Origin: an uncultured Bacteroidales bacterium
GTDB lineage: Bacteria > Bacteroidota > Bacteroidia > Bacteroidales > WCHB1-69
Length of the DNA stretch: 64,000 nucleotides
Reading direction: 5' to 3'
Assembly: GCA_937901925.1 (NCBI GenBank)
Contig: CALGTS010000058.1
Span: 4,605-68,604, forward strand
Position numbers and translations under genes: made by a program. The notes below the pieces were generated by a model. It worked only from the letters and a program-made list of their open reading frames with translations, was not told the origin of the DNA and did no database searches. Shown in pieces: positions 30,306 through 40,955 of this stretch; within the stretch, counting starts at the first letter, position 1; each line of letters starts with the position of its first letter.

Positions 30306-30671
30306 TCACTCATAATATCTAAATCTTTCAAATTGGAAGACAACCTCTTTTTTCTGACCAGAACTATCCATATTAACAATGCGTTTGGTTGTTGAAGCAA
30401 CACAATTTATATTCCTATTTTTCAACCTCTTAACCAAAGAATATGCAAAAGTTTGCTCTCCCATCAAATGTACAACCACATTTTCTCTTTCTGCTATGAG
30501 TAGAATTTTTTGTAAATATTCATCAGCTAACTTTGAAATATAATTTTCATCGGCAGACTCGTCAATATGAGGGAATGGCATATCTACGACTTTGCCGAAA
30601 AGTTGTATTGCTGTTCTTTTTTGCTTCTCGCTCCAAATATTTGACGGATGATTCGTAAAATTAAGTAACAT
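30306..30671 (-). CDS. 121-aa orphan Rossmann-like CRISPR-linked protein, paralog of the N-terminal domain of helicase 44707..46755
   Basis: MLLNFTNHPSNIWSEKQ...VVHLMGEQTFAYSLVKRL...NCVASTTKR...FERFRYYE. The start ATG overlaps the upstream stop (TAATG at 30669-30673). ORF-track start 30704 trimmed. I cannot assign a named family from memory. Confidence 0.5.
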   Translation of the reverse strand: MLLNFTNHPSNIWSEKQKRTAIQLFGKVVDMPFPHIDESADENYISKLADEYLQKILLIAERENVVVHLMGEQTFAYSLVKRLKNRNINCVASTTKRIVNMDSSGQKKEVVFQFERFRYYE

Positions 30672-31906
30672 TACAATATTTTTTTTAACTGTTCTGATCC
30701 ACAAATCAATTTTTTGTCTAAAATCTTTATTCTCGAAAGGGAAGCTCTATTAAGCAAGCCCTGCATTTTCTTTAATTTATTACTATCACTTCCTATATAT
30801 TCTTTAAAATCTGTCAAAGTAAAAATATAGGATTTTGCAAACAACCCAAATTTTGTTTTCAAAGCATCTGATTTATAAATAGTTTCACCTAATATTTCAA
30901 CTGGTTTTTCAATTAAAATTGGATTATTATTTTCATCAAAACAAAGTTTCCCCTTCTTATCCTTCTTCTGTTTTTGCTCTATATTTATGATTGACGTTTT
31001 ACATTCAATTATATGAAATTCGCCATTTTTCATAAACATCACATCAATTTCATTGGGTGTATAGTCTTCGCTTGTATCTTTAATTCCAAAATCTGCAATA
31101 GGATTAAGGTCTTTTTTGTCAGCAATTTCTTTTCTAATCTGTGCTCCAATTAAAATATCACCATCACCCAATTCTAATTCTTTTTTCAAACGCTCTCCAA
31201 CATATTCTTCAAACCATTCACCTGTAAGATATTTAACCTCCAATTTATCTAGACAATTTTGCTTTTTGGGAGTATAACCTATTGCGTTCAGAAATTCATT
31301 AACTCGAGAACAATCTCTTAAACCATCTTTTCTTTTCTCTCTCAGTATCTTAAGTTCCTCCTTATAGGTATCAAATACACCATTGCAAAAATGGTTAAAA
31401 ATAGAATTTGTAACATCAAATTCAACTCCGCTTGATTCTGTGGTCTCAAAATCAAACCCATACGCATATAAGTACTCTCTAATACCGATATGGGCACTTA
31501 ATTTTAACTCTTCGTACGGAGACTTCATATTCAAGCGACAATCATTTCTTCCTGTAAGGTAGTAAATTTCCGTATTACTTTTATTAACGAAATAATCATA
31601 TACTGCCAGCGACATTATCTTTGTTCCTCCAGTAATGTTCACAATTATTCTTTCGTAATTATCATACTTAATACTATTCAATTTCTGCTCAATATCACAT
31701 TGTGAATATTCATCAACTACAATTTTATAAATAGGACAATTCGTGATATTTGCAGATTTTTCAACCCATTTACACACACCTTTTCGCTCCATACTTTGTG
31801 TTGAAACAAAGAGATAATCAGGTTTCACGGACTTGTATTCCTTAATAAGTTGCACATTAGGTAAAGTCTGATCACTTACCAATGAAACCAACAATATTTT
31901 TCCCAT
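30671..31906 (-). CDS. Can2/Card1-like cOA effector #2: CARF + PD-(D/E)xK nuclease
   Basis: 411 aa. MGKILLVSLVSDQTLPNV...VNITGGTKIMSLAVY (CARF). LTGEWFEEYVGERL, then EIDVMFMKNGEFHIIECKTS (D-x13-E-x-K), with a Lys-rich insertion after the ExK. Confidence 0.7.
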   Translation of the reverse strand: MGKILLVSLVSDQTLPNVQLIKEYKSVKPDYLFVSTQSMERKGVCKWVEKSANITNCPIYKIVVDEYSQCDIEQKLNSIKYDNYERIIVNITGGTKIMSLAVYDYFVNKSNTEIYYLTGRNDCRLNMKSPYEELKLSAHIGIREYLYAYGFDFETTESSGVEFDVTNSIFNHFCNGVFDTYKEELKILREKRKDGLRDCSRVNEFLNAIGYTPKKQNCLDKLEVKYLTGEWFEEYVGERLKKELELGDGDILIGAQIRKEIADKKDLNPIADFGIKDTSEDYTPNEIDVMFMKNGEFHIIECKTSIINIEQKQKKDKKGKLCFDENNNPILIEKPVEILGETIYKSDALKTKFGLFAKSYIFTLTDFKEYIGSDSNKLKKMQGLLNRASLSRIKILDKKLICGSEQLKKIL

Positions 31907-31908
31907 AA

Positions 31909-33048
31909 TTATTTTGTATTAATGTTAAACAACTCGCTTTCCAACAAAAATTGAAGAGCCTTTTCTTCTGTTAAACCTAAATGGCTATCTTGCAACGAGA
32001 ACGACAAAATACCGTGCTCCTCGCATTTTGCTTTTGCAATATCCGTCATCTTTGCATCTGTGACAAACACCCCCTTACTACCCATGCCTCCATAGTTTTT
32101 AATAACACTACGAAATTTATCAATATCTGTTATGTTATTAATCTGCGTCTTGCACTCTACAAACAGCACTTTAGAACCTGTATTTACAACTATATCTGCT
32201 TCGTTTTTATCTACGTCTTTTTTGTACGGAAATTTGCAATTCATACAAATCTCCTTGCTTCTACTCCACGTACTGAGATATTTTGCCACTTTAAATTCAA
32301 ACCAACCACTATTAAACGCCAAATCCACTGCATTAGTAGACTCTAACTTGACCTCTTTTGACTTTCCGTTCTTTTTTATCAGAAAAACACGCACAAAGCC
32401 ATCTTGTTGTTCTGTAGTCTTTTCCCACTCCACATAAGAGCCCGAAATATGTTCAAACTTACCATATTTACAATTCTTTAAAATGTGCTGTTTTTGTTTA
32501 TCTAAAACGGTCAACAATGCATTAAATGTCTGAACAGCAAAATTTCTAATCTCCTCAATTTTCTTCATTGCTTCAACATCTGCTTCGGTGTAATCTGAGA
32601 ACTTTTTATAATTATTCTCTATAGAATTGCCATAAAGCCGAAAGTGGGTATGCATATCAAACTCAAACTCTTGCAATCCTTGCATTGTTCTATAATTCCA
32701 CAATACATTATTCTGGTCCATATAGACTATAGTAGCATTTTCCTTAGATTGGAACATTACACCAAATAGATGAGACCACGACTTCGGACCACTTGAAATA
32801 TTGACAACAACTTCATCTTTCGCGTATTGTTCTGCCAACTTTTTAACCACCTTTTGTATTTCTACGGCTTCCGTAGGCGATAATTGAACCGACTCATAAG
32901 GAACATTTATCTCCTTGATTAACGCATTCAAAGCCTTAAGACTATCTATCGAATGCACAAATACAACTTTATCTGGATTTGTTGCCTTTATCCCATTATA
33001 CACTGGAGCTGGCTGTCCTCCTACTAATGTTATGTGTATTTTACTCAT
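31909..33048 (-). CDS. Can2/Card1-like cOA effector #3: divergent CARF + PD-(D/E)xK nuclease
   Basis: MSKIHITLVGGQPAPVYNGI...VNISSGPKSWSHLF (CARF-like, with the GGT motif replaced by SGP). NSGWFEFKVAKYL, then EADIVVNTGSKVLFVECKTQ (D-x13-E-x-K). ORF-track start 33066 trimmed. Confidence 0.65.
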   Translation of the reverse strand: MSKIHITLVGGQPAPVYNGIKATNPDKVVFVHSIDSLKALNALIKEINVPYESVQLSPTEAVEIQKVVKKLAEQYAKDEVVVNISSGPKSWSHLFGVMFQSKENATIVYMDQNNVLWNYRTMQGLQEFEFDMHTHFRLYGNSIENNYKKFSDYTEADVEAMKKIEEIRNFAVQTFNALLTVLDKQKQHILKNCKYGKFEHISGSYVEWEKTTEQQDGFVRVFLIKKNGKSKEVKLESTNAVDLAFNSGWFEFKVAKYLSTWSRSKEICMNCKFPYKKDVDKNEADIVVNTGSKVLFVECKTQINNITDIDKFRSVIKNYGGMGSKGVFVTDAKMTDIAKAKCEEHGILSFSLQDSHLGLTEEKALQFLLESELFNINTK

Positions 33049-33052
33049 AAGC

Positions 33053-33631
33053 TTACATTTTTTCACACAACCTCAATGCCAACCCAGACCACAACTCAAA
33101 TTTTTCCAAATTTAGTTCTTTCGGATTTTCCCATTGGGGCAAACCGATTTCTGCGTCAAATCTCATCTGTCCCACTGCTACATTCACTCGAAAAACTACT
33201 CCGGTATGACAATGTCCTACCGATGTCTCCTCTTCGTTTATCATGCCCAACAACTCCACATCGCTATCATGCAAGGAAACGCCTACCTCCTCTCTAAACT
33301 CTCGCTTCAAACCTTGCAAAAGGGTGTTGTAAGGTGTTAACTGTTTATCTCCGTCTGTCACATGTCCGCCAATGCCTGCCGAACGGATTCCCTTCAATCG
33401 TTTTTCACTACCACATCTCTGATAGGTTAACACTTGCCCCTTTGCATTAAACACCAATGCATACGCTATCAATTGCTTGTATGTATAATCCTGCTCTAAA
33501 AATGCTCTTTTCTCAAAACACTGTGGCAATCTATTTAATTCCTCTACGGTTATTTGCCATGAGCACAAATTTAAATCAAATGCCAGCCGCATCTGCTCAA
33601 CTGGTACACATAATACATTTTCGTCTTTCAT
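33053..33631 (-). CDS. NUDIX hydrolase, translationally coupled to the CARF-adenosine deaminase
   Basis: 192 aa with a Nudix-box core ...GIGGHV...LLQGLKREFREEVGV. Its ATG overlaps the deaminase stop (ATGA at 33628-33631). Confidence 0.75.
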   Translation of the reverse strand: MKDENVLCVPVEQMRLAFDLNLCSWQITVEELNRLPQCFEKRAFLEQDYTYKQLIAYALVFNAKGQVLTYQRCGSEKRLKGIRSAGIGGHVTDGDKQLTPYNTLLQGLKREFREEVGVSLHDSDVELLGMINEEETSVGHCHTGVVFRVNVAVGQMRFDAEIGLPQWENPKELNLEKFELWSGLALRLCEKM

Positions 33632-35664
33632 AACAAATCCTGTTTTATCAATTCACTAATTTTTTCCTCAACCCTTCTTATCAACTGTTTCTTCTGCTCA
33701 TAGGGATAGAATGCTGTTCGAAAACCGTTACACGTCAATTGCAACAAATCCCACTTGGACAGACCACCTCGTGTTAGGCGTGCCGCCCTATGCAACTCTT
33801 GGGTTGGGGTTGTTAAGGAAATCCCCGGATTATCTGTATTCACTGATACCTTCAATTCGCAGTCAAGATATTTTTTCAACGGATAATCTGGCATGTTTTG
33901 AGTTCCAGAAAAATAATTATCTCTATATCCTACAATCTGATAATTACTGCTCGGGCACATCTCTATACCAATACCCCGCTCCAAAAACTTAACCATCAAA
34001 TCCTCTTTTTCTATCAACTTCAATCCATGTCCAATACGTTCTGCTGTCAAATAATAAACTGCCTCCCAAATATTTTCTGCCGGAGCTGTTTCGCCTGCGT
34101 GTATTGTGATGTTGTAACAATCTTTCATTATCTCCAGGAATTGTTCTCGCACCTCCTTAGGTGATTTGGCACTTTCATCTCCAGCCAAGTCAAAACCTCT
34201 GAAATACTTCTTAAATAAAGCATCATCCTTCAACTGTTTTGTCAGCTCTATACTCTGCAGGATTTTATCATCTCCACCATGACGAGAGGCTATCATTATA
34301 ACAGAAGTTTCCACCTCCGGTTCTCTTTCCAATTCTTCAAATATAGCTTGCAGAACTTGATTCGGGCTTAATATTGATGTCTGATAATTAATTGGAGAGC
34401 AGCGTATCTCTAGGTATGCAATATTCTCTTTTTTACACTTTGATAAGAGAATTTGGACAGTTTTCCTTATGGCAGTTTCATTACATAATAGAGCCGAACC
34501 CTGTAAATCGCCTAAACTCTCGTATGCATTAATACCTATTGACTTATAATCTGACTCTTGAATGTAATTTCCGAATATTATTTGCTCTAGTGCTCTTGGG
34601 TTATCTTCATATTCCAAAATAAATCTTGACGCAATTAATCCTTTATGAACACCTAAATGGTTTTCCAAAGCTTTATACCAATCTTTTATTGGCAACTTCT
34701 TATCATACTTACAATCCCATTTACTATAGAGTAAGTTTTGCTTTTTTTCCTTTTCAATCAAAGGTAGATAACACTTAGCTACCTCTATCATCTCTTCTGC
34801 TGTCAATACACCACCAAGATGACAATGAAGGTCTGACTTAGGCAATCGTTGCAAATACTCTAATTCCTCTTTTTGTTTTGATGGGTCGATTCCTAAATAA
34901 TCCGTTTTCAGTTCCTTAATTTTTGATGGAGGCAATGTGTAAAGGATATAAAAATTGGAACGAGTCTCTTTTTCATCCAAATAATATGTTGTATAAAAGT
35001 GTTGCGCATTTCTTTTTTGATTCTGAATATCTGTCAAAAAATCTGTATCCGGTGTACATTTTACAACAACACCTTCGTCAAAATAAAGATCCTTCACTTT
35101 CAAAACCTCATTTTTCTTGATTGCTCCTAAATTCAATGGAAAAGCCTCTTCTTTCCTATCTCCTAAAACATGTATGAGTGCATCGCACCCAAAGCAATAG
35201 GCTGCCTCCTGAAAATCAGCACTCATCGTTTTTCGTCCGCATGCCAATGATAAATACAATCTTCCGCCATCACATTGCTGTCTTGCATAAGCAATCACTT
35301 TATAAGCAAGGTCTCTGTATTGAAAAGCTTCATCATCATTAGTAATATCATTTACACCTTGCAGAACAAACAAACGAATACGTTTTACATACTTACTACA
35401 ACTTTCTTCTATCTGTTTAAAATCTTCAAAAGTTGATTTAATATCTCTGAAACTCCCTTTTTTACCTTCCCTATCGGTTGCAACAAGCCATAGTTCATCA
35501 ATAGGGAAAGAGGAAAAATCAGCCTCTTCTCTACTCGTTTGTATGCTCTGAAAGGAGACTAATTTTTCATAAAAATCAATCTCCTTAAAATTAATATACC
35601 CAACCGTCTCTTCAATAATATCAGGTTGTGCACCTAATGCCGAAACCAATATATTTTTGACCAT
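33628..35664 (-). CDS. cad1: Cad1/CAAD-type CRISPR-associated adenosine deaminase (N-terminal CARF + C-terminal ADA domain)
   Basis: 678 aa. N-terminus MVKNILVSALGAQPDIIEETVGY (CARF-like Rossmann). C-terminal ADA motifs LPKSDLHCHLGG (HxH), ITIHAGE and SVNTDNPG. Confidence 0.85.
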   Translation of the reverse strand: MVKNILVSALGAQPDIIEETVGYINFKEIDFYEKLVSFQSIQTSREEADFSSFPIDELWLVATDREGKKGSFRDIKSTFEDFKQIEESCSKYVKRIRLFVLQGVNDITNDDEAFQYRDLAYKVIAYARQQCDGGRLYLSLACGRKTMSADFQEAAYCFGCDALIHVLGDRKEEAFPLNLGAIKKNEVLKVKDLYFDEGVVVKCTPDTDFLTDIQNQKRNAQHFYTTYYLDEKETRSNFYILYTLPPSKIKELKTDYLGIDPSKQKEELEYLQRLPKSDLHCHLGGVLTAEEMIEVAKCYLPLIEKEKKQNLLYSKWDCKYDKKLPIKDWYKALENHLGVHKGLIASRFILEYEDNPRALEQIIFGNYIQESDYKSIGINAYESLGDLQGSALLCNETAIRKTVQILLSKCKKENIAYLEIRCSPINYQTSILSPNQVLQAIFEELEREPEVETSVIMIASRHGGDDKILQSIELTKQLKDDALFKKYFRGFDLAGDESAKSPKEVREQFLEIMKDCYNITIHAGETAPAENIWEAVYYLTAERIGHGLKLIEKEDLMVKFLERGIGIEMCPSSNYQIVGYRDNYFSGTQNMPDYPLKKYLDCELKVSVNTDNPGISLTTPTQELHRAARLTRGGLSKWDLLQLTCNGFRTAFYPYEQKKQLIRRVEEKISELIKQDLL

Positions 35665-35693: not shown

Positions 35694-35993
35694 CTACAAC
35701 TCCATTACCTTTGGACAAGTTACTTTCAATATCTCCTTGCGAATATCATCAGGTACAACTCCGCCTCCATAATACCTCAAACTTACAACATTGGTTACAT
35801 TCTGTACCGTAAAATGCTTTTGTCTTATTTTAAATGAGCCACAACTTAATTCTACTTTTTTCCAAAACTGGTTACGTATATCGGTATAGAACACGTAAAA
35901 TATTGCAATATTAGCCATTGCTCTAACAGCTGATATAAAAACAACATAACTATTGAACCACTCCGAAATTACATCAAGAATATCTTTTTCCAT
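35694..35993 (-). CDS. Hypothetical 99-aa protein with one predicted TM helix
   Basis: ORF only. Hydrophobic segment YVVFISAVRAMANIAIFYVFY. Ends 29 nt upstream of the cad1 start. Confidence 0.35.
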   Translation of the reverse strand: MEKDILDVISEWFNSYVVFISAVRAMANIAIFYVFYTDIRNQFWKKVELSCGSFKIRQKHFTVQNVTNVVSLRYYGGGVVPDDIRKEILKVTCPKVMEL

Positions 35994-36030: not shown

Positions 36031-37371
36031 TCATAACTCTTTCTCTAATATTCGCTCAATCTGTCCGACATAATAAAACGGAACATTAATCAACTTAAAT
36101 TGTTTTCCTTTGAAAGTTGTCACATTATCAACAGAATAAGGATTAGACCAAACTCTGATTGCGATGGCGTGCGGAGCTTTCTCCATAAAAAGATGCAACG
36201 ATTTGAGTTTAGCATTATGCCCAGACTTTACCTCTATTGGAACTACTAAATTTCTGAACTGATATAGAAAATCGACCTCGGCATCCGAGCCATCCTTATC
36301 TCTGCGCCAATAGTTATGACGAAGTGACACATCGTTGTCATACGCCACAAGCTCTTGGGCAACTATATGTTCTGCTATTCTACCTCTCCACACTTCACAT
36401 ATATCTTTTGCCGAAAAAACATCATCCTGAACCTTTGAGGCATAATTGACAATACCCGTATCCACCCACAACAATTTAGGGCGTTTCTTAAAATTAGGTA
36501 ATATCGGTATGTGAGTATCTGATGTGGGATAGACCAATTCTGTCAGCATGGCTTTTTCAATAATTTGGAAAGCCTCGCTCATTTCTCGCGACCGATAGTT
36601 AGAACCTCCAAAGCCTTCGAACGAAATGGTCTCTGCAGCGCACTGCCACCCATAAGTCATTATTGTACGTATCACCTTCACCATTGTTTTGCTACTTGTA
36701 TATTTCTCTACATCATCTTTGTAGGCTTGCAACAATGAATTGAACACGCTTGAACACGACAAGAGATCTCTTCGCTTTGCATATTGCATAATCACAGCAG
36801 GCATTCCGCCTACCAGAATATACTCGCGAAAAAGCTGCATTACTCGGTGATGTACAACAGAATCAACGTTGAAACTCGTTACAAGATTTCTATCAAAATC
36901 TTCGCCAATACCGTCCAAAAACTCCCAAAAAGAACATGGCCGTAAAGACATAAACTGCACTCGTCCTACAGGGAATGAAATTTTACGAACATCCATCACC
37001 GTCTCTAACAAAGAACCTGCCACTATTACATGAATATCCTTTGCCTCTTCGTAAAAATAGCGAAGAATTGCCACCGCTTTCTTAGAGTTTTGTATCTCAT
37101 CAATAAAAAGTAGCACAGAACCATCGATTTGTTCCTGTTTTTTATAGAAATAGATAGATTTCAACAATTGATGCACATCATCTGTCTGCTCAAACAATTC
37201 AGAATCTCGACTTCGTTCAAGATTAAGATACAAAAAAGTATCAAAATCCTTTGCAAACTCTTTCACCAAGGTTGTTTTACCAACTTGACGAACGCCCCTG
37301 ATTATTAAAGGTTTTCTATCTTCAGAACTTCTCCATTCTTTTAGTTTATTTATTGCCAATCTTCTTATCAT
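36031..37371 (-). CDS. AAA+ ATPase with C-terminal DUF4143 (PD-(D/E)xK-like) domain
   Basis: Walker A GVRQVGKTT, Walker B LLFIDEIQ, C-terminal DAEVDFLYQFRNLVVPIEVKSG. 446 aa. Confidence 0.8.
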   Translation of the reverse strand: MIRRLAINKLKEWRSSEDRKPLIIRGVRQVGKTTLVKEFAKDFDTFLYLNLERSRDSELFEQTDDVHQLLKSIYFYKKQEQIDGSVLLFIDEIQNSKKAVAILRYFYEEAKDIHVIVAGSLLETVMDVRKISFPVGRVQFMSLRPCSFWEFLDGIGEDFDRNLVTSFNVDSVVHHRVMQLFREYILVGGMPAVIMQYAKRRDLLSCSSVFNSLLQAYKDDVEKYTSSKTMVKVIRTIMTYGWQCAAETISFEGFGGSNYRSREMSEAFQIIEKAMLTELVYPTSDTHIPILPNFKKRPKLLWVDTGIVNYASKVQDDVFSAKDICEVWRGRIAEHIVAQELVAYDNDVSLRHNYWRRDKDGSDAEVDFLYQFRNLVVPIEVKSGHNAKLKSLHLFMEKAPHAIAIRVWSNPYSVDNVTTFKGKQFKLINVPFYYVGQIERILEKEL

Positions 37372-37641: not shown

Positions 37642-38766
37642 TTATTCCTGTAATGATAATTTTACAAATCCCAATAACTCACAAACATCATCAACTCTTC
37701 TTGTCTTTGGAAAATCATACTCACTATAGTTTTGGTTATTTGGTCGAGACACTGGAACTACAAGGCTTTCAAAATTATCTAAGTCTCTTGCCCATCCTCC
37801 AGTTATGAAGTTCCAACCAGAGCCATGACCTATGCGCAACACACACTCTTTCCCTTTGCCACAGTTCTGAGCTTCGTTCTTTATTGATTCAATCTTCTCC
37901 AAATAACACTCTACTTTATCTGAATCATCTCTATCTGACCGTTCTTTCCAATATTCCAATTCAAAATCTAATAAACGAATTGTGTGGTTATTAATTGCTT
38001 CGAATAAAGATTCATAGGATGACATAATATTAGGCAAATCGCCAATTGTAGACCATTTCTCTTTCGATTTATTATAACCTTCTACATTAAGCTTCATCTC
38101 AAACCTTGTTATATCTTCGGAAGGTAAAGCTTCAATCATTTGAGATTTACTTTTATCCCAAAAAATTTTTGATGTTCGCTCATTTATATTCACCATTCGC
38201 AAAGATACTGTATAACATTCCCCAAAATAAGCATCACCAACTTGCAGAAATCTGAAAACATCATTATTTGGGTCACTACCAAACAACTCCTTTTCTACCT
38301 TATTGGCATTTGTTTTTTTCTTACCATTGGCAGAAACATCTATTTTTCTTTCTGCATCATTGACATTCTCAGCAAGAGATGCAAGTATTGCTGTCCTAAT
38401 CGCTCCTTTTATCGAACTACCAGGTATGTACGGTTTACCCTGTCCGTTATGAATATGTTCCTTCAATGTGTCTCTCTCATGAGCTTCTGACCATTCCAGA
38501 ACTATACGTTTCGCATAATCTTCAACTTTAGCATTGGGAGCAAATCGTTTAACCACATTACCTGTGGATTCCTTACGTTCAATCGCCACCACCCAATCTT
38601 GAAGATGTTCTTCACCAATCAAATCCAACACTTTTTCAGGAGAAACTACCGCCAACACATAATTGTTGCCCATCTTTCCTTTCACAAAGTCAGAACCTAT
38701 TTGCAAAACCTCACCGGAGCCTATATGCACAGATGTCAAAGTTTTTATCTTAACTATTTTTTTCAT
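37642..38766 (-). CDS. csm5: Type III-A RAMP protein Csm5
   Basis: MKKIVKIKTLTSVHIGSGE... and KPYIPGSSIKGAIRTAI RAMP motifs. Last gene of the csm operon. ATGA overlap with the csm4 stop. ORF-track start 38841 trimmed. Confidence 0.8.
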   Translation of the reverse strand: MKKIVKIKTLTSVHIGSGEVLQIGSDFVKGKMGNNYVLAVVSPEKVLDLIGEEHLQDWVVAIERKESTGNVVKRFAPNAKVEDYAKRIVLEWSEAHERDTLKEHIHNGQGKPYIPGSSIKGAIRTAILASLAENVNDAERKIDVSANGKKKTNANKVEKELFGSDPNNDVFRFLQVGDAYFGECYTVSLRMVNINERTSKIFWDKSKSQMIEALPSEDITRFEMKLNVEGYNKSKEKWSTIGDLPNIMSSYESLFEAINNHTIRLLDFELEYWKERSDRDDSDKVECYLEKIESIKNEAQNCGKGKECVLRIGHGSGWNFITGGWARDLDNFESLVVPVSRPNNQNYSEYDFPKTRRVDDVCELLGFVKLSLQE

Positions 38767-39758: not shown

Positions 39759-40402
39759 TACTCTTTTACAACACCATTATCAATGTCAAGTCCTTCAAAC
39801 TTAATCTGACCATATCCACGTGAGCCATGACCACCCAAATAGTCGTCTTCTAACAATTCAATTGCCTGTTTAAGCGTCTTCTTCAGTTCTTTTTCATCTT
39901 CACCTTCAAATACATTCAACACCATGTTTAATTTAAACTTAGCCCCAGCCGGAACACGTTCAAACGTACGCGGATTTGCCTTAGCCGTTACTCTATCAAT
40001 TGCAACTTCCGTCTTACTTTCTGTATAAGGCAAGTCTGTATTACTAAAATCACAAGCATCAACATCCAACTCTGCATCTCTAACAATCAGACGAGATGGT
40101 CTGTTATTATCAGAACCTGTTGCAACACCAAACAACTTTCCAGAAACCGAATCTGGATCCTTACTTGGTCCTACTTTTCCTCTGTCAACTTCGACGCAAC
40201 CATTTGCAATCTCTACCAACGCACGCATCTTACCCTTCAAAGAACTGCCCGGAATATAGGGAATATTGTTAATAGGATTTCTAACCACAAACTTGTCCGG
40301 ACCTCCAATATTCAACGCTGCATTTGTACCTCCAATATGCAAACCTGTTTTTAGCACTATTGTGCCTGTATATAATATTTTCTTTACTAATTTCGTAGCC
40401 AT
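39755..40402 (-). CDS. csm3: Type III-A backbone RAMP Csm3 (Cas7), with Asn at the catalytic Asp position
   Basis: TGLHIGGTNAALNIGGPDKFVVRNPINNIPYIPGSSLKGKMRAL and C-terminal DDYLGGHGSRGYG. Collinear with S. epidermidis Csm3 as I recall it. Confidence 0.9.
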   Translation of the reverse strand: MATKLVKKILYTGTIVLKTGLHIGGTNAALNIGGPDKFVVRNPINNIPYIPGSSLKGKMRALVEIANGCVEVDRGKVGPSKDPDSVSGKLFGVATGSDNNRPSRLIVRDAELDVDACDFSNTDLPYTESKTEVAIDRVTAKANPRTFERVPAGAKFKLNMVLNVFEGEDEKELKKTLKQAIELLEDDYLGGHGSRGYGQIKFEGLDIDNGVVKEY

Positions 40403-40442
40403 ATTTTTACTTTTTATGATTTAACAAATTAAATAAAATAGA

Positions 40443-40928: not shown

Positions 40929-40955
40929 AATATCTTTATTTAATTGATTAATACT

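Follow-up and report, generated by a model that had tools for sequence, protein, structure and literature searches.

We analysed a 64,000-nt stretch of contig CALGTS010000058.1 (assembly GCA_937901925.1, positions 4,605 to 68,604 of the forward strand) from an uncultured Bacteroidales bacterium, hereafter the window, and focused on two adjacent genes on its minus strand. The upstream gene, cad1/CAAD (33628..35664), starts at an ATG and encodes a 678-amino acid (aa) protein predicted to fuse a CARF domain that senses cyclic oligoadenylate (cOA) to an ATP deaminase domain of the adenosine deaminase (ADA) fold. The downstream gene (33053..33631), also starting at an ATG, encodes a 192-aa NUDIX hydrolase of a TM1382-like family. 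By analogy, this enzyme is a putative inosine triphosphate (ITP) pyrophosphatase that would release inosine monophosphate (IMP) and pyrophosphate (PPi). The two genes share the four nucleotides ATGA (33628..33631, minus strand): cad1 ends in ...TTG TTA TGA, and the NUDIX gene starts ATG AAA GAC... in the +1 frame. The open reading frames (ORFs), their coordinates and the overlap are exactly as described in a first-pass annotation of this DNA. That annotation also took the overlap to imply fixed stoichiometry, which was not borne out; an ATGA junction supports co-translation and co-expression of the pair and speaks for these only.

Identical or near-identical copies of both genes are found on many independent metagenome contigs. 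The NUDIX N-terminus, MK-ENVLCV, which begins at the overlapping ATG, is kept among homologues. Because the copies recur and this N-terminus is conserved, we consider both ORFs to be real genes. A scan of the window for sigma-70 promoters and terminators performed at chance level and is unsuited to Bacteroidota, and therefore no operon boundaries were taken from it.

The first-pass annotation proposed that the 678-aa protein joins a CARF-like N-terminus to ADA motifs, which is the architecture of the Cad1/CAAD deaminases. Profile searches support this proposal. The protein matches the Pfam family A_deaminase (6.9e-47, residues 390-667) and the CARF family Cas_NE0113 (4.8e-8, residues 52-171), and the PADLOC model CARF5--CARF_ADA covers residues 3-675 (E=1.8e-192). 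When PDB sequences were searched with phmmer, the best match was Bacteroidales Cad1 (9c67, E=4e-54), with both domains aligned, followed by TaqCad1/TaqCAAD (9ebt and 9ubl, ~9e-47) and then by 8z3k/8z3p (~1e-45), which are structures of LnCAAD. The top five matches were all solved CRISPR deaminases, and housekeeping ADAs appeared only from 8e-26. A stand-alone housekeeping adenosine deaminase (Add, ~330 aa) was considered and rejected: the Add model TIGR01430 scored 180 bits, under its cut-off of 216.55, and matched only from model position 59, while the protein carries a CARF fusion and the substitutions G284 and N612 described below. Close homologues are labelled 'CRISPR-associated ring nuclease' by NCBI.

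The predicted structure points the same way. An AlphaFold2 (AF2) model of the monomer, built from 44 homologues, had a pLDDT of 91, and the top 38 Foldseek matches to it in the PDB were all Cad1/CAAD cryo-EM chains, aligned over their whole length. The CARF domain (~residues 1-205; 35050..35664, minus strand) shows a Rossmann-like beta-alpha pattern in the model, aligns in the PDB sequence search to the Cad1 CARF crystal chains 9c69/9c68 and carries the predicted cOA-binding residues Lys145 and Asp106. It is followed by a partly disordered linker (~residues 206-270; 34855..35049, minus strand) in which residues 223-231 have pLDDT <50 and helices are modelled at 208-226, 239-254 and 261-273. 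In Bacteroidales Cad1, linker L1 is 51 aa long (PMC11645235). The remainder forms the ADA-fold deaminase domain (~residues 271-678; 33628..34854, minus strand), with H280/H282, G284, G385/S390, H522/E525, H546 and D611/N612. In Foldseek, ADA-only Cad1 chains superpose on the model with TMt of 0.77-0.80, and classical ADAs with 0.82-0.89. The fold comparison agrees with the proposed assignment of both the CARF and the ADA parts. Judged by its sequence and modelled fold, the 678-aa protein belongs to the Cad1/CAAD family over its full length.

We next considered whether the residues that matter in characterised Cad1s are retained. Published residues were mapped onto the window protein through the PDB alignments, and conservation was judged across the 44 homologues. 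The motifs lie at HCHLGG 280-285, HAGE 522-525 and NTDNPG 609-614, and the metal ligands and catalytic residues H280/H282, H522/E525, H546 and D611 are invariant. In TaqCAAD, H485 and D548 contact the 6-amino group and G314 and S319 form the triphosphate/Mg2+ site (PMC12669630/PMC12993439). The first two correspond to H546 and D611 of the window protein; the counterparts of the second two, G385 and S390, are nearly invariant (at least 90% of homologues). Within the triphosphate/Mg2+ motif YxxLGDxxGS (Taq 310-319), Y381, E382, L384, G385, D386, Q388, G389 and S390 are invariant or nearly so. The cOA-binding residue K145 (K106 in TaqCad1, K104 in Bacteroidales Cad1), the pocket residue D106 (Cad1 D67) and the whole of GRKT (143-146) are invariant.

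Two substitutions distinguish Cad1 from canonical ADA, corresponding to mouse Asp19 to Gly and Asp296 to Asn (EMBO J paper). Both are found in the window protein, as the invariant G284 within HCHLGG and as N612 within NTDNPG. The first-pass annotation read HCHLGG as a canonical ADA motif. This reading is mistaken, as the canonical form is HxHLDG and the change from Asp to Gly is itself a Cad1 signature. It also suggested that TDN rather than TDD may relate to ATP specificity. The direction of this idea is right, in that the reversion N549D abolishes ATP deamination by TaqCad1, although this was already published (EMBO J paper); the position is not fixed, however. Among LnCAAD-like homologues, Asn occupies the NTD[N/D] position in 71/71. 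Among long-form relatives with a readable motif, it is Asn in 40/67, Asp in 26/67 and Gly in 1/67, so that over both sets Asn occurs in 111 and Asp in 26. Natural Asp at this position is confined to the long-form set, although the equivalent N549D change inactivates TaqCad1. Within that set, 25 of the Asn proteins have a NUDIX neighbour and 15 do not, compared with 21 and 5 of the Asp proteins. We make no claim of a correlation, as the trend is weak and uncorrected for phylogeny.

The long form itself is defined by additional sequence within the ADA domain. An unaligned span of 78 residues (294 to 372) takes the place of 27-32 residues in three solved Cad1s, an excess of ~50 residues. The extra segment is modelled as helices at 289-368 with pLDDT >90, and it contains the nearly invariant residues N310, W316 and K327. 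A length of ~680 aa is usual among the nearest 120 homologues, and for this reason we regard the long form as widespread. By length and by this insertion, the window protein is assigned to a 'long-form' subfamily that stands apart from the biochemically characterised Cad1s (600-635 aa).

The partner protein gave fewer leads by annotation. It matches Pfam NUDIX (4.6e-7), and Pfam, NCBIfam and PADLOC gave it no family name beyond 'NUDIX'. Its closest solved relative is TM1382 (PDB 3e57, E=1.8e-20). The AF2 model (pLDDT 93) matches 3e57 in Foldseek with TM-scores of 0.81/0.85, followed by generic nucleoside triphosphate (NTP) pyrophosphohydrolases. In the Nudix box, R110, E111, E114 and E115 are invariant and the catalytic REx2EE is intact. 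Compared with the canonical GX5EX7REUXEEXGU, the loop that precedes the helix has 7 more residues, and D95 replaces the first Glu. Our literature search found no paper on TM1382 and no reported substrate or CRISPR link. The family profile recovered 1,915 cluster representatives at an E of 1e-30 or better. One subclade, which has INDD/ETWSQ in place of INEE/ELWS, sits among housekeeping genes; P0206, a distant TM1382-like member (35% identical), has housekeeping neighbours and no CRISPR context.

We analysed a 64,000-nt stretch of contig CALGTS010000058.1 (assembly GCA_937901925.1, positions 4,605 to 68,604 of the forward strand) from an uncultured Bacteroidales bacterium, hereafter the window, and focused on two adjacent genes on its minus strand. 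The upstream gene, cad1/CAAD (33628..35664), starts at an ATG and encodes a 678-amino acid (aa) protein predicted to fuse a CARF domain that senses cyclic oligoadenylate (cOA) to an ATP deaminase domain of the adenosine deaminase (ADA) fold. The downstream gene (33053..33631), also starting at an ATG, encodes a 192-aa NUDIX hydrolase of a TM1382-like family. By analogy, this enzyme is a putative inosine triphosphate (ITP) pyrophosphatase that would release inosine monophosphate (IMP) and pyrophosphate (PPi). The two genes share the four nucleotides ATGA (33628..33631, minus strand): cad1 ends in ...TTG TTA TGA, and the NUDIX gene starts ATG AAA GAC... in the +1 frame. The open reading frames (ORFs), their coordinates and the overlap are exactly as described in a first-pass annotation of this DNA. 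That annotation also took the overlap to imply fixed stoichiometry, which was not borne out; the ATGA junction supports co-translation and co-expression of the pair and speaks for these only.

Identical or near-identical copies of both genes are found on many independent metagenome contigs. The NUDIX N-terminus, MK-ENVLCV, which begins at the overlapping ATG, is kept among homologues. Because the copies recur and this N-terminus is conserved, we consider both ORFs to be real genes. A scan of the window for sigma-70 promoters and terminators gave results at chance level, with a consensus that is unsuited to Bacteroidota, and therefore no operon boundaries were taken from it.

The first-pass annotation proposed that the 678-aa protein joins a CARF-like N-terminus to ADA motifs, which is the architecture of the Cad1/CAAD deaminases. 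Profile searches support this proposal. The protein matches the Pfam family A_deaminase (6.9e-47, residues 390-667) and the CARF family Cas_NE0113 (4.8e-8, residues 52-171), and the PADLOC model CARF5--CARF_ADA covers residues 3-675 (E=1.8e-192). When PDB sequences were searched with phmmer, the best match was Bacteroidales Cad1 (9c67, E=4e-54), with both domains aligned, followed by TaqCad1/TaqCAAD (9ebt and 9ubl, ~9e-47) and then by the LnCAAD entries 8z3k/8z3p (~1e-45). The top five matches were all solved CRISPR deaminases, and housekeeping ADAs appeared only from 8e-26. A stand-alone housekeeping adenosine deaminase (Add, ~330 aa) was considered and rejected: the Add model TIGR01430 scored 180 bits, under its cut-off of 216.55, and matched only from model position 59, and the protein carries a CARF fusion as well as the residues G284 and N612 described below. 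Close homologues are labelled 'CRISPR-associated ring nuclease' by NCBI.

The predicted structure is consistent with these matches. An AlphaFold2 (AF2) model of the monomer, built from 44 homologues, had a pLDDT of 91, and the top 38 Foldseek matches to it in the PDB were all Cad1/CAAD cryo-EM chains, aligned over the whole length. The CARF domain (~residues 1-205; 35050..35664, minus strand) shows a Rossmann-like beta-alpha pattern in the model, aligns in the PDB sequence search to the Cad1 CARF crystal chains 9c69/9c68 and carries the predicted cOA-binding residues Lys145 and Asp106. It is followed by a partly disordered linker (~residues 206-270; 34855..35049, minus strand), in which residues 223-231 have pLDDT <50 and helices are modelled at 208-226, 239-254 and 261-273. 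Linker L1 of Bacteroidales Cad1 is 51 aa long (PMC11645235). The remainder forms the ADA-fold deaminase domain (~residues 271-678; 33628..34854, minus strand), with H280/H282, G284, G385/S390, H522/E525, H546 and D611/N612. In Foldseek, ADA-only Cad1 chains superpose on the model with TMt of 0.77-0.80, and classical ADAs with 0.82-0.89. The fold comparison agrees with the assignment of both the CARF and the ADA parts. Judged by its sequence and modelled fold, the 678-aa protein is a full-length member of the Cad1/CAAD family.

Published functional residues were mapped onto the window protein through the PDB alignments, and conservation was judged across the 44 homologues. The motifs lie at HCHLGG 280-285, HAGE 522-525 and NTDNPG 609-614, and the metal ligands and catalytic residues H280/H282, H522/E525, H546 and D611 are invariant. 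In TaqCAAD, H485 and D548 contact the 6-amino group, and G314 and S319 belong to the triphosphate/Mg2+ site (PMC12669630/PMC12993439). The first two correspond to H546 and D611 of the window protein; the counterparts of the second two, G385 and S390, are nearly invariant (at least 90% of homologues). Within the triphosphate/Mg2+ motif YxxLGDxxGS (Taq 310-319), Y381, E382, L384, G385, D386, Q388, G389 and S390 are invariant or nearly so. The cOA-binding residue K145 (K106 in TaqCad1, K104 in Cad1), the pocket residue D106 (Cad1 D67) and the whole of GRKT (143-146) are invariant.

The window protein also carries additional sequence within its ADA domain. An unaligned span of 78 residues (294 to 372) compares with 27-32 residues in three solved Cad1s, an excess of ~50 residues. 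The extra segment is modelled as helices at 289-368 with pLDDT >90, and it includes the nearly invariant residues N310, W316 and K327. A length of ~680 aa is usual among the nearest 120 homologues, and for this reason we regard this long form as widespread. By length and by this insertion, the protein belongs to a 'long-form' subfamily that stands apart from the biochemically characterised Cad1s (600-635 aa).

Cad1 differs from canonical ADA by two signature substitutions, Gly in place of mouse Asp19 and Asn in place of Asp296 (EMBO J paper). Both are present in the window protein, as the invariant G284 in HCHLGG and as N612 in NTDNPG. HCHLGG had been read in the first-pass annotation as a canonical ADA motif. 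That was mistaken, as the canonical form is HxHLDG and the change from Asp to Gly is itself a Cad1 signature. The same annotation linked TDN, rather than TDD, to ATP specificity. The direction of this idea is right and already published, in that the N549D reversion abolishes ATP deamination by TaqCad1 (EMBO J paper), but the position is not fixed. Among LnCAAD-like homologues, Asn occupies the NTD[N/D] position in 71/71. Long-form relatives with a readable motif have Asn in 40/67, Asp in 26/67 and Gly in 1/67, giving Asn in 111 and Asp in 26 over both sets. Natural Asp is confined to the long-form set, although the equivalent N549D change inactivates TaqCad1. Within that set, 25 of the proteins with Asn are accompanied by a NUDIX gene and 15 are not, and the figures for Asp are 21 and 5. 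We make no claim that the residue correlates with NUDIX presence, as this trend is weak and uncorrected for phylogeny.

The 192-aa partner matches Pfam NUDIX (4.6e-7), and Pfam, NCBIfam and PADLOC gave it no family name beyond 'NUDIX'. Its closest solved relative is TM1382 (PDB 3e57, E=1.8e-20). The AF2 model (pLDDT 93) matches 3e57 in Foldseek with TM-scores of 0.81/0.85, followed by generic nucleoside triphosphate (NTP) pyrophosphohydrolases. In the Nudix box, R110, E111, E114 and E115 are invariant and the catalytic REx2EE is intact. The loop before the helix is 7 residues longer than in the canonical GX5EX7REUXEEXGU, and D95 replaces the first Glu. Our literature search found no paper on TM1382 and no reported substrate or CRISPR link. 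The family profile recovered 1,915 cluster representatives at an E of 1e-30 or better. One subclade, with INDD/ETWSQ in place of INEE/ELWS, sits among housekeeping genes, and P0206, a distant TM1382-like member (35% identical), has housekeeping neighbours and no CRISPR context.

The pairing of cad1 with this NUDIX family was examined in 80 loci from many phyla, obtained by an alignment-based scan of species-representative genomes (L001-L080). It was counted in the 69 loci that have at least 650 nt beyond the cad1 stop. The NUDIX gene lies directly downstream of cad1, on the same strand, in 52/69 loci, and it lies upstream in 2 further loci. The two genes overlap by 1-23 nt in 42 of the 52 (-4 in 26 loci, -8 in 8, -1 in 4 and other overlaps in 4). 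The pair is found in Bacteroidota, Fibrobacterota, Desulfobacterota, Planctomycetota, Spirochaetota, Verrucomicrobiota and Proteobacteria. NUDIX relatives that are only 34-44% identical also directly follow Cad1 homologues of 710-723 aa (3/3 mid-distance relatives checked). These data indicate that the pairing of cad1 and NUDIX is not due to chance.

A CAAD with a Nudix hydrolase (NH) partner has been described. LnCAAD and NH come from a type III-B system (Li et al., Science 2025, doi 10.1126/science.adr0393; PDB 8Z3K, 8Z3P, 8Z40). According to two papers that cite this work, cyclic tetra- or hexa-adenylate (cA4/cA6) activates CAAD to convert ATP to ITP, and the Nudix hydrolase then converts ITP to IMP. 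We rebuilt LnCAAD residues 310-625 from the 8z3k PDB alignment to seek its genomic neighbours. The exact protein was absent from a large protein collection, where the best identity was 68-71%. A metagenome scan recovered 74 LnCAAD relatives (L085-L158), with enough downstream DNA at 64 loci. A hidden Markov model of the window NUDIX family matched the gene downstream of LnCAAD relatives, at ~1e-50, in 4/4 loci with at least 71% identity (L085, L116, L086, L088). By proxy, these matches place the window NUDIX in the same family as the published CAAD partner. The NUDIX gene is far commoner beside long-form Cad1 (52/69, 75%) than beside LnCAAD-like short forms (16/64, 25%). Card1 and no NUDIX lie downstream at L084, and an unannotated 209-aa gene lies downstream at the P0280 locus. 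The first-pass annotation had suggested that the NUDIX acts on the inosine nucleotide product. This matches the published CAAD-Nudix hydrolase system, and by analogy with it the window NUDIX is predicted to hydrolyse ITP to IMP and PPi.

The pair lies within a type III-A CRISPR locus. The effector genes csm1-csm5 span 37642..43478 on the minus strand, and all match NCBIfam equivalogs: cas10/csm1 (40956..43478, 1.5e-183), with HD at residue 16 and GGDD at 637; csm2 (40443..40928, 1.5e-14); csm3 (39755..40402, 5.6e-66); csm4 (38763..39758, 1.4e-63); and csm5 (37642..38841, 3.5e-24). The ORF starts of the last two are approximate. A 230-aa Cas6b is encoded at 43487..44179, also on the minus strand (Pfam Cas6b_N 3.7e-20, Cas6b_C 1.2e-33). 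On the plus strand, an adaptation module (44707-49257) comprises a RecD-like SF1 helicase, cas1, a CRISPR-associated primase-polymerase of type B (NF040562, 7e-130) and cas2. Precomputed Pfam matches for the RecD-like helicase in identical contigs include a Csx20/MJ1673 domain. The CRISPR array (49411..51751) has 32 copies of a 37-nt repeat and spacers of 35-41 nt. Together, Csm1-5, Cas6b, Cas1, Cas2, a Cas10 with HD and GGDD, and the 32-repeat array provide the type III context of cad1.

Further effector genes follow the pair on the minus strand. A Card1/Can2-like protein with CARF and PD-D/ExK nuclease domains (31909..33048; PADLOC CARF4--CARF_PDDEXK E=8e-147, weak Pfam Card1) is 379 aa long from its ATG, as it is also called in identical contigs. 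It is followed by a second Card1-like CARF nuclease of 411 aa (30671..31906; Pfam CARF_Card1 2.6e-36, Card1_endonuc 1.3e-9; PADLOC CARF4--CARF_PDDEXK 2.6e-47), by csx20 (30306..30671, 121 aa; PADLOC Csx20 6.4e-38, NCBIfam CAS_Csx20, precomputed PF27247 MJ1673), which belongs to a cA4 ring nuclease family and is a predicted off-switch, and by a third Card1-like CARF nuclease of 387 aa (29049..30212; Pfam Card1_endonuc 8.4e-18, CARF_Card1 1.9e-12; PADLOC 1.4e-49). Spacing is tight. After the 4-nt overlap of cad1 and NUDIX come a 4-nt gap to the first Card1-like gene, a 2-nt gap to the second, a 1-nt overlap with csx20 and a 93-nt gap to the third. Four CARF effectors (Cad1 and three paralogous Card1-like nucleases, 29049-33048) and one ring nuclease thus stand under one Cas10. 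Further CARF effectors, including Card1, are reported in 76% of CAAD loci (PMC12669630/PMC12993439), and a multi-effector layout is therefore already known. Csx20 is an experimentally confirmed cA4 ring nuclease that occurs only alongside cA4-dependent effectors (PMC12409355), which suggests that cA4 is the likely messenger at this locus.

Two genes separate csm5 from cad1, both on the minus strand. One encodes an ATPase with AAA_14 and DUF4143 domains (36031..37371; Pfam; PADLOC candidate defence PDC-S01, 4.2e-178), which is found in 7/80 related cad1 loci; just upstream of it, a 34-bp tandem repeat is present in 2.4 copies (37382-37461). The other is a 99-aa ORF directly upstream of cad1 (35694..35993) with one hydrophobic stretch and no Pfam, NCBIfam or PADLOC match. 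It is conserved in L001 and L002 (~1e-50) and, at a different position, in L009 (9e-23). No feature that bears on the Cad1-NUDIX module came up in Rfam and tRNA scans of the window. Unrelated to the module are a cobalamin riboswitch (20902-21084, minus strand), tRNA-Met (16228-16302, plus strand) and tRNA-Ser (21207-21295, plus strand).

Domain architecture, fold, published functional residues, locus context and conservation of the gene pair are all direct observations. We consider it very probable that the two genes form a Cad1/CAAD-Nudix hydrolase module that serves as one output arm of type III-A CRISPR-Cas. In the proposed mechanism, the Csm complex would recognise a phage transcript and the Cas10 GGDD cyclase would make cyclic oligoadenylates, most likely cA4 and possibly cA6 too. 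The messenger would bind the CARF domains of dimeric Cad1, in a pocket containing K145 and D106, and allosterically activate the ADA-fold domain of a presumably hexameric enzyme to deaminate ATP to ITP. Activity of Cad1/CAAD is known to need a hexamer, a trimer of dimers (PMC11645235; EMBO J paper). Three Cad1 homologues have been shown to convert ATP to ITP in a cA4/cA6-dependent manner and not to use adenosine, AMP or dATP (including PMC11645235). The co-translated NUDIX would then hydrolyse ITP to IMP and PPi. The adenylate pool would be drained or ITP cleared, growth would arrest and phage replication would stop. In parallel, the three Card1-like nucleases of the same operon may add cOA-activated nucleic-acid damage, and Csx20 would end the signal by degrading cA4. 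For the ligand, ATP specificity, hexamer formation, ITP-to-IMP activity and physiological outcome, we infer from homologues that the window proteins would behave alike.

Several observations weigh against this interpretation. Overall identity to the solved Cad1s is ~25%, the ADA domain has ~50 extra residues and the characterised Cad1s are all of the shorter type. CARF position 144 is an invariant Arg, where TaqCAAD has an essential stacking Tyr105 and Bacteroidales Cad1 has Ile, and the cOA ligand preference is therefore uncertain. The family identity with the published Nudix hydrolase comes from neighbours of close LnCAAD relatives, and the family was matched in 16/64 LnCAAD-like loci overall. 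Baca et al. observed immunity in a system without any NUDIX, a word that is absent from their paper (PMC11645235). On the strength of the 16/64 loci and this immunity, NUDIX is dispensable for Cad1 function. The literature is also split on whether Nudix promotes growth arrest or mitigates toxicity, with PMC12669630/PMC12993439 among the sources of the toxicity view. Lastly, on a 5.7-kb contig, a NUDIX::Card1 fusion (P0322, L164:3350-5056) comes directly after csm3-csm4-csm5 and is itself followed by csx20, and cad1 is missing from the interval. A fusion without an adjacent cad1 hints that NUDIX may have a Cad1-independent substrate.

This fusion is one of several. In P0180, P0328 and P0382, a NUDIX of this clade is joined to Csx20, the cA4 ring nuclease, with the Csx20/MJ1673 domain at the NUDIX C-terminus, and P0180 (L159:2027-2998, L160:3002-3973) lies directly after a 641-aa Cad1. 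A separate csx20 immediately follows NUDIX in several loci (L023, L054, L021). NUDIX::Card1-like fusions (CARF and PD-D/ExK) of 536-573 aa form four clusters at ≤50% identity (P0321, P0322, P0323, P0326) and involve two Card1 subfamilies. Nudix catalytic residues are largely kept in both kinds of fusion. Because such fusions include one in a csm locus without an adjacent cad1, they link NUDIX with the cOA machinery in a wider sense than would be expected of a mere accessory to Cad1, although the examples are few and lie outside the window. NUDIX might then be an integral and possibly physically associated component of the cOA response that partners CARF proteins generally. The ~50-residue Cad1 insertion could dock NUDIX, so that ATP is channelled through ITP to IMP or a switch for recovery is built into the module. 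We regard this extension as unlikely. Alternatively, NUDIX may act mainly on another nucleotide of the cOA pathway, such as linear or cyclic-phosphate cOA products, ATP/dATP or capped species, and would then regulate signalling or be an effector itself, with Cad1 as one of several partners. The Csx20 and Card1 fusions and the L164 arrangement favour this idea, and as to substrate, the fold points no further than to a generic NTP pyrophosphohydrolase. However, adjacent operon genes fuse commonly and a new substrate is not implied; cad1 could sit beyond the end of the short L164 contig; and the other fusion with readable context, L163:934-2649 (P0321), follows cad1. NUDIX directly follows cad1 in most loci counted and in all three mid-distance relatives, and the published activity of the CAAD-linked Nudix hydrolase is ITP to IMP. 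A different main substrate is improbable, at roughly one chance in ten.We analysed a 64,000-nt stretch of contig CALGTS010000058.1 (assembly GCA_937901925.1, positions 4,605 to 68,604 of the forward strand) from an uncultured Bacteroidales bacterium, hereafter the window, and focused on two adjacent genes on its minus strand. The upstream gene, cad1/CAAD (33628..35664), starts at an ATG and encodes a 678-amino acid (aa) protein predicted to fuse a CARF domain that senses cyclic oligoadenylate (cOA) to an ATP deaminase domain of the adenosine deaminase (ADA) fold. The downstream gene (33053..33631), also starting at an ATG, encodes a 192-aa NUDIX hydrolase of a TM1382-like family. By analogy, this enzyme is a putative inosine triphosphate (ITP) pyrophosphatase that would release inosine monophosphate (IMP) and pyrophosphate (PPi). 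The two genes share the four nucleotides ATGA (33628..33631, minus strand): cad1 ends in ...TTG TTA TGA, and the NUDIX gene starts ATG AAA GAC... in the +1 frame. The open reading frames (ORFs), their coordinates and the overlap are exactly as described in a first-pass annotation of this DNA. That annotation also took the overlap to imply fixed stoichiometry, which was not borne out; the ATGA junction supports co-translation and co-expression of the pair and speaks for these only.

Identical or near-identical copies of both genes are found on many independent metagenome contigs. The NUDIX N-terminus, MK-ENVLCV, which begins at the overlapping ATG, is kept among homologues. Because the copies recur and this N-terminus is conserved, we consider both ORFs to be real genes. 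A scan of the window for sigma-70 promoters and terminators gave results at chance level, with a consensus that is unsuited to Bacteroidota, and therefore no operon boundaries were taken from it.

The first-pass annotation proposed that the 678-aa protein joins a CARF-like N-terminus to ADA motifs, which is the architecture of the Cad1/CAAD deaminases. Profile searches support this proposal. The protein matches the Pfam family A_deaminase (6.9e-47, residues 390-667) and the CARF family Cas_NE0113 (4.8e-8, residues 52-171), and the PADLOC model CARF5--CARF_ADA covers residues 3-675 (E=1.8e-192). When PDB sequences were searched with phmmer, the best match was Bacteroidales Cad1 (9c67, E=4e-54), with both domains aligned, followed by TaqCad1/TaqCAAD (9ebt and 9ubl, ~9e-47) and then by the LnCAAD entries 8z3k/8z3p (~1e-45). 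The top five matches were all solved CRISPR deaminases, and housekeeping ADAs appeared only from 8e-26. A stand-alone housekeeping adenosine deaminase (Add, ~330 aa) was considered and rejected: the Add model TIGR01430 scored 180 bits, under its cut-off of 216.55, and matched only from model position 59, and the protein carries a CARF fusion as well as the residues G284 and N612 described below. Close homologues are labelled 'CRISPR-associated ring nuclease' by NCBI.

The predicted structure is consistent with these matches. An AlphaFold2 (AF2) model of the monomer, built from 44 homologues, had a pLDDT of 91, and the top 38 Foldseek matches to it in the PDB were all Cad1/CAAD cryo-EM chains, aligned over the whole length. 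The CARF domain (~residues 1-205; 35050..35664, minus strand) shows a Rossmann-like beta-alpha pattern in the model, aligns in the PDB sequence search to the Cad1 CARF crystal chains 9c69/9c68 and carries the predicted cOA-binding residues Lys145 and Asp106. It is followed by a partly disordered linker (~residues 206-270; 34855..35049, minus strand), in which residues 223-231 have pLDDT <50 and helices are modelled at 208-226, 239-254 and 261-273. Linker L1 of Bacteroidales Cad1 is 51 aa long (PMC11645235). The remainder forms the ADA-fold deaminase domain (~residues 271-678; 33628..34854, minus strand), with H280/H282, G284, G385/S390, H522/E525, H546 and D611/N612. In Foldseek, ADA-only Cad1 chains superpose on the model with TMt of 0.77-0.80, and classical ADAs with 0.82-0.89. 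The fold comparison agrees with the assignment of both the CARF and the ADA parts. Judged by its sequence and modelled fold, the 678-aa protein is a full-length member of the Cad1/CAAD family.

Published functional residues were mapped onto the window protein through the PDB alignments, and conservation was judged across the 44 homologues. The motifs lie at HCHLGG 280-285, HAGE 522-525 and NTDNPG 609-614, and the metal ligands and catalytic residues H280/H282, H522/E525, H546 and D611 are invariant. In TaqCAAD, H485 and D548 contact the 6-amino group, and G314 and S319 belong to the triphosphate/Mg2+ site (PMC12669630/PMC12993439). The first two correspond to H546 and D611 of the window protein; the counterparts of the second two, G385 and S390, are nearly invariant (at least 90% of homologues). 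Within the triphosphate/Mg2+ motif YxxLGDxxGS (Taq 310-319), Y381, E382, L384, G385, D386, Q388, G389 and S390 are invariant or nearly so. The cOA-binding residue K145 (K106 in TaqCad1, K104 in Cad1), the pocket residue D106 (Cad1 D67) and the whole of GRKT (143-146) are invariant.

The window protein also carries additional sequence within its ADA domain. An unaligned span of 78 residues (294 to 372) compares with 27-32 residues in three solved Cad1s, an excess of ~50 residues. The extra segment is modelled as helices at 289-368 with pLDDT >90, and it includes the nearly invariant residues N310, W316 and K327. A length of ~680 aa is usual among the nearest 120 homologues, and for this reason we regard this long form as widespread. 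By length and by this insertion, the protein belongs to a 'long-form' subfamily that stands apart from the biochemically characterised Cad1s (600-635 aa).

Cad1 differs from canonical ADA by two signature substitutions, Gly in place of mouse Asp19 and Asn in place of Asp296 (EMBO J paper). Both are present in the window protein, as the invariant G284 in HCHLGG and as N612 in NTDNPG. HCHLGG had at first been read as a canonical ADA motif. That was mistaken, as the canonical form is HxHLDG and the change from Asp to Gly is itself a Cad1 signature. TDN, rather than TDD, had also been linked to ATP specificity. The direction of this idea is right and already published, in that the N549D reversion abolishes ATP deamination by TaqCad1 (EMBO J paper), but the position is not fixed. 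Among LnCAAD-like homologues, Asn occupies the NTD[N/D] position in 71/71. Long-form relatives with a readable motif have Asn in 40/67, Asp in 26/67 and Gly in 1/67, giving Asn in 111 and Asp in 26 over both sets. Natural Asp is confined to the long-form set, although the equivalent N549D change inactivates TaqCad1. Within that set, 25 of the proteins with Asn are accompanied by a NUDIX gene and 15 are not, and the figures for Asp are 21 and 5. We make no claim that the residue correlates with NUDIX presence, as this trend is weak and uncorrected for phylogeny.

The 192-aa partner matches Pfam NUDIX (4.6e-7), and Pfam, NCBIfam and PADLOC gave it no family name beyond 'NUDIX'. Its closest solved relative is TM1382 (PDB 3e57, E=1.8e-20). 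The AF2 model (pLDDT 93) matches 3e57 in Foldseek with TM-scores of 0.81/0.85, followed by generic nucleoside triphosphate (NTP) pyrophosphohydrolases. In the Nudix box, R110, E111, E114 and E115 are invariant and the catalytic REx2EE is intact. The loop before the helix is 7 residues longer than in the canonical GX5EX7REUXEEXGU, and D95 replaces the first Glu. Our literature search found no paper on TM1382 and no reported substrate or CRISPR link. The family profile recovered 1,915 cluster representatives at an E of 1e-30 or better. One subclade, with INDD/ETWSQ in place of INEE/ELWS, sits among housekeeping genes, and P0206, a distant TM1382-like member (35% identical), has housekeeping neighbours and no CRISPR context.

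The pairing of cad1 with this NUDIX family was examined in 80 loci from many phyla, obtained by an alignment-based scan of species-representative genomes (L001-L080). It was counted in the 69 loci that have at least 650 nt beyond the cad1 stop. The NUDIX gene lies directly downstream of cad1, on the same strand, in 52/69 loci, and it lies upstream in 2 further loci. The two genes overlap by 1-23 nt in 42 of the 52 (-4 in 26 loci, -8 in 8, -1 in 4 and other overlaps in 4). The pair is found in Bacteroidota, Fibrobacterota, Desulfobacterota, Planctomycetota, Spirochaetota, Verrucomicrobiota and Proteobacteria. NUDIX relatives that are only 34-44% identical also directly follow Cad1 homologues of 710-723 aa (3/3 mid-distance relatives checked). 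These data indicate that the pairing of cad1 and NUDIX is not due to chance.

A CAAD with a Nudix hydrolase (NH) partner has been described. LnCAAD and NH come from a type III-B system (Li et al., Science 2025, doi 10.1126/science.adr0393; PDB 8Z3K, 8Z3P, 8Z40). According to two papers that cite this work, cyclic tetra- or hexa-adenylate (cA4/cA6) activates CAAD to convert ATP to ITP, and the Nudix hydrolase then converts ITP to IMP. We rebuilt LnCAAD residues 310-625 from the 8z3k PDB alignment to seek its genomic neighbours. The exact protein was absent from a large protein collection, where the best identity was 68-71%. A metagenome scan recovered 74 LnCAAD relatives (L085-L158), with enough downstream DNA at 64 loci. 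A hidden Markov model of the window NUDIX family matched the gene downstream of LnCAAD relatives, at ~1e-50, in 4/4 loci with at least 71% identity (L085, L116, L086, L088). By proxy, these matches place the window NUDIX in the same family as the published CAAD partner. The NUDIX gene is far commoner beside long-form Cad1 (52/69, 75%) than beside LnCAAD-like short forms (16/64, 25%). Card1 and no NUDIX lie downstream at L084, and an unannotated 209-aa gene lies downstream at the P0280 locus. The first-pass annotation had suggested that the NUDIX acts on the inosine nucleotide product. This matches the published CAAD-Nudix hydrolase system, and by analogy with it the window NUDIX is predicted to hydrolyse ITP to IMP and PPi.

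The pair lies within a type III-A CRISPR locus. The effector genes csm1-csm5 span 37642..43478 on the minus strand, and all match NCBIfam equivalogs: cas10/csm1 (40956..43478, Csm1 1.5e-183), with HD at residue 16 and GGDD at 637; csm2 (40443..40928, Csm2 1.5e-14); csm3 (39755..40402, Csm3 5.6e-66); csm4 (38763..39758, Csm4 1.4e-63); and csm5 (37642..38841, Csm5 3.5e-24). The ORF starts of the last two are approximate. A 230-aa Cas6b is encoded at 43487..44179, also on the minus strand (Pfam Cas6b_N 3.7e-20, Cas6b_C 1.2e-33). On the plus strand, an adaptation module (44707-49257) comprises a RecD-like SF1 helicase, cas1, a CRISPR-associated primase-polymerase of type B (NF040562, 7e-130) and cas2. 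Precomputed Pfam matches for the RecD-like helicase in identical contigs include a Csx20/MJ1673 domain. The CRISPR array (49411..51751) has 32 copies of a 37-nt repeat and spacers of 35-41 nt. Csm1-5, Cas6b, Cas1, Cas2, a Cas10 with HD and GGDD, and the 32-repeat array provide the type III context of cad1.

Further effector genes follow the pair on the minus strand. A Card1/Can2-like protein with CARF and PD-D/ExK nuclease domains (31909..33048; PADLOC CARF4--CARF_PDDEXK E=8e-147, weak Pfam Card1) is 379 aa long from its ATG, as it is also called in identical contigs. It is followed by a second Card1-like CARF nuclease of 411 aa (30671..31906; Pfam CARF_Card1 2.6e-36, Card1_endonuc 1.3e-9; PADLOC CARF4--CARF_PDDEXK 2.6e-47), by csx20 (30306..30671, 121 aa; PADLOC Csx20 6.4e-38, NCBIfam CAS_Csx20, precomputed PF27247 MJ1673), which belongs to a cA4 ring nuclease family and is a predicted off-switch, and by a third Card1-like CARF nuclease of 387 aa (29049..30212; Pfam Card1_endonuc 8.4e-18, CARF_Card1 1.9e-12; PADLOC 1.4e-49). 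After the 4-nt overlap of cad1 and NUDIX come a 4-nt gap to the first Card1-like gene, a 2-nt gap to the second, a 1-nt overlap with csx20 and a 93-nt gap to the third. Four CARF effectors (Cad1 and three paralogous Card1-like nucleases, 29049-33048) and one ring nuclease stand under one Cas10. Further CARF effectors, including Card1, are reported in 76% of CAAD loci (PMC12669630/PMC12993439), and a multi-effector layout is therefore already known. Csx20 is an experimentally confirmed cA4 ring nuclease that occurs only alongside cA4-dependent effectors (PMC12409355), which suggests that cA4 is the likely messenger at this locus.

Between csm5 and cad1, the minus strand encodes an ATPase with AAA_14 and DUF4143 domains (36031..37371; Pfam; PADLOC candidate defence PDC-S01, 4.2e-178), which is found in 7/80 related cad1 loci. 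Just upstream of it, a 34-bp tandem repeat is present in 2.4 copies (37382-37461). Directly upstream of cad1, on the same strand, lies a 99-aa ORF (35694..35993) with one hydrophobic stretch and no Pfam, NCBIfam or PADLOC match. It is conserved in L001 and L002 (~1e-50) and, at a different position, in L009 (9e-23). No feature that bears on the Cad1-NUDIX module came up in Rfam and tRNA scans of the window. Unrelated features elsewhere are a cobalamin riboswitch (20902-21084, minus strand), tRNA-Met (16228-16302, plus strand) and tRNA-Ser (21207-21295, plus strand).

Domain architecture, fold, published functional residues, locus context and conservation of the gene pair are all direct observations. 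We consider it very probable that the two genes form a Cad1/CAAD-Nudix hydrolase module that serves as one output arm of type III-A CRISPR-Cas. In the proposed mechanism, the Csm complex would recognise a phage transcript and the Cas10 GGDD cyclase would make cyclic oligoadenylates, most likely cA4 and possibly cA6 too. The messenger would bind the CARF domains of dimeric Cad1, in a pocket containing K145 and D106, and allosterically activate the ADA-fold domain of a presumably hexameric enzyme to deaminate ATP to ITP. Activity of Cad1/CAAD needs a hexamer, a trimer of dimers (PMC11645235; EMBO J paper). Three Cad1 homologues have been shown to convert ATP to ITP in a cA4/cA6-dependent manner and not to use adenosine, AMP or dATP (including PMC11645235). 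The co-translated NUDIX would then hydrolyse ITP to IMP and PPi. The adenylate pool would be drained or ITP cleared, growth would arrest and phage replication would stop. In parallel, the three Card1-like nucleases of the same operon may add cOA-activated nucleic-acid damage, and Csx20 would end the signal by degrading cA4. For the ligand, ATP specificity, hexamer formation, ITP-to-IMP activity and physiological outcome, we infer from homologues that the window proteins would behave alike.

Several observations weigh against this interpretation. Overall identity to the solved Cad1s is ~25%, the ADA domain has ~50 extra residues and the characterised Cad1s are all of the shorter type. CARF position 144 is an invariant Arg, where TaqCAAD has an essential stacking Tyr105 and Bacteroidales Cad1 has Ile, and the cOA ligand preference is therefore uncertain. 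The family identity with the published Nudix hydrolase comes from neighbours of close LnCAAD relatives, and the family was matched in 16/64 LnCAAD-like loci overall. Baca et al. observed immunity without any NUDIX, a word that is absent from their paper (PMC11645235). On the strength of the 16/64 loci and this immunity, NUDIX is dispensable for Cad1 function. The literature is also split on whether Nudix promotes growth arrest or mitigates toxicity, with PMC12669630/PMC12993439 among the sources of the toxicity view. Lastly, on a 5.7-kb contig, a NUDIX::Card1 fusion (P0322, L164:3350-5056) comes directly after csm3-csm4-csm5 and is itself followed by csx20, and cad1 is missing from the interval. 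This fusion without an adjacent cad1 hints that NUDIX may have a Cad1-independent substrate.

Other fusions are known in this NUDIX clade. It is joined to the cA4 ring nuclease Csx20 in P0180, P0328 and P0382, with the Csx20/MJ1673 domain at the NUDIX C-terminus, and P0180 (L159:2027-2998, L160:3002-3973) lies directly after a 641-aa Cad1. A separate csx20 immediately follows NUDIX in several loci (L023, L054, L021). NUDIX::Card1-like fusions (CARF and PD-D/ExK) of 536-573 aa form four clusters at ≤50% identity (P0321, P0322, P0323, P0326) and involve two Card1 subfamilies. Nudix catalytic residues are largely kept in both kinds of fusion. Because NUDIX is fused to Csx20 and Card1, including in a csm locus without an adjacent cad1, its role may be broader than that of a simple Cad1 accessory and tied to the cOA machinery, although the examples are few and lie outside the window. 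NUDIX might form an integral part of the cOA response, perhaps in physical association, and partner CARF proteins generally. The ~50-residue Cad1 insertion could dock NUDIX, so that ATP is channelled through ITP to IMP or a switch for recovery is built into the module. We regard this extension as unlikely. It is improbable, too, that NUDIX acts mainly on another nucleotide of the cOA pathway (linear or cyclic-phosphate cOA products, ATP/dATP or capped species) as a signalling regulator or an effector of its own, with Cad1 as one of several partners. The fusions and the L164 arrangement favour such a role, and as to substrate, the fold points no further than to a generic NTP pyrophosphohydrolase. 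However, adjacent operon genes fuse commonly and a new substrate is not implied, cad1 could sit beyond the end of the short L164 contig, and the other fusion with readable context, L163:934-2649 (P0321), follows cad1. NUDIX also directly follows cad1 in the 52 loci and in all three mid-distance relatives, and the published activity of the CAAD-linked Nudix hydrolase is ITP to IMP.

Another explanation concerns the deaminase. If the long-form domain were inactive or used another substrate, the protein could mainly tune the three Card1-like nucleases, serving as a sponge for cOA or as a ring nuclease. TaqCad1's ring-nuclease activity dampens a co-encoded Csx1 (PMC12669630/PMC12993439), the NCBI name of close homologues agrees with such a role, and the ~50-residue insertion is absent from all characterised Cad1s. 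We nevertheless find this very improbable. The metal-binding and catalytic residues are invariant and the triphosphate-site residues invariant or nearly so, the confident ADA model superposes on Cad1 ADA chains, and next to an inactive deaminase there would be nothing for a closely coupled nucleotide pyrophosphatase to do. Finally, the adjacency could be incidental and the NUDIX a housekeeping MutT-like enzyme, given that distant TM1382-like members such as P0206 sit among housekeeping genes without CRISPR. However, the pair, with overlapping stop and start codons, is conserved across the seven phyla named above, and the housekeeping members form a separate subclade. A housekeeping neighbour is effectively refuted by the synteny statistics (52/69 loci, and relatives of 34-44% identity after Cad1), and we give incidental adjacency almost no credence.

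The CAAD-Nudix pair and its ITP-to-IMP activity are already published (Li et al., Science 2025, doi 10.1126/science.adr0393, as cited by others). The window locus is a clear-cut new example of this anti-phage module, an annotation and not a discovery, and the current understanding of type III CRISPR immunity is unchanged. It provides a confident functional annotation for a pair that is publicly labelled only 'adenosine deaminase', 'ring nuclease' or 'hypothetical', and 'NUDIX domain protein'. The pair is not specific to this organism but is a deeply conserved, usually translationally coupled module of many phyla. The long form (~680 aa, with the extra helical segment) is much more often paired with NUDIX, whereas the characterised Cad1s are of the shorter type. 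The operon, with its deaminase, NUDIX, three Card1-like nucleases and Csx20, might be used as a natural model of the coordination of multiple cA4 effectors. It could also help to decide whether NUDIX enforces arrest as an irreversible ATP sink or limits ITP toxicity and enables recovery.

The anti-phage RADAR system, whose RdrB deaminates ATP/dATP, and the ITPases RdgB/ITPA and NUDT16 resemble the module in logic, since in them (d)ITP is made or removed for immunity or for house-cleaning; they are compared by description, and no homology is claimed. RADAR differs in being neither cOA-regulated nor CRISPR-linked and in pairing its deaminase with an AAA+ ATPase, and RdgB/ITPA are Ham1-fold enzymes, not Nudix. 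TM1382, a putative Nudix hydrolase of Thermotoga maritima (PDB 3E57), is the closest solved relative of the window NUDIX (TM 0.81-0.85). It shares the extended Nudix loop (GGHx4D...REx2EE) and an N-terminal extension, but identity is ~30%.

TaqCad1/TaqCAAD of Thermoanaerobaculum aquaticum (PMC12669630, PMC12993439; PDB 9EBT, 9UBL) has the same architecture and a co-encoded second CARF effector. Its tested residues K106, G264, G314, S319, H485, D548 and N549 correspond to K145, G284, G385, S390, H546, D611 and N612. It differs in coming from a thermophile and a type III-B locus that pairs CAAD with Csx1 and lacks NUDIX, and in having the essential stacking Y105 in place of Arg144. Bacteroidales Cad1 (Baca et al., Cell 2024, PMC11645235; PDB 9C67) is the best sequence and fold match (E=4e-54). 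It comes from the same phylum-level host and a type III-A context, has the NTDN motif and shares the CARF pair K104 and D67 (K145 and D106). It is shorter (600 aa versus 678 aa), is ~25% identical overall, has Ile in place of Arg at position 144 and is described in a paper that mentions no NUDIX.

LnCAAD with NH differs in its type III-B (Cmr) context, where the window is type III-A (Csm), and in an overall identity of ~23%. LnCAAD has 635 aa compared with 678 aa, and the window protein carries ~46 extra residues after HCHLGG. Three Card1-like nucleases, Csx20 and an AAA ATPase are further components of the window operon. Both proteins share the same ADA, ATP-site and CARF residues, the window NUDIX family stands beside the closest LnCAAD relatives, and both present the same two-gene module, a CARF-ADA deaminase gene followed by a NUDIX gene.

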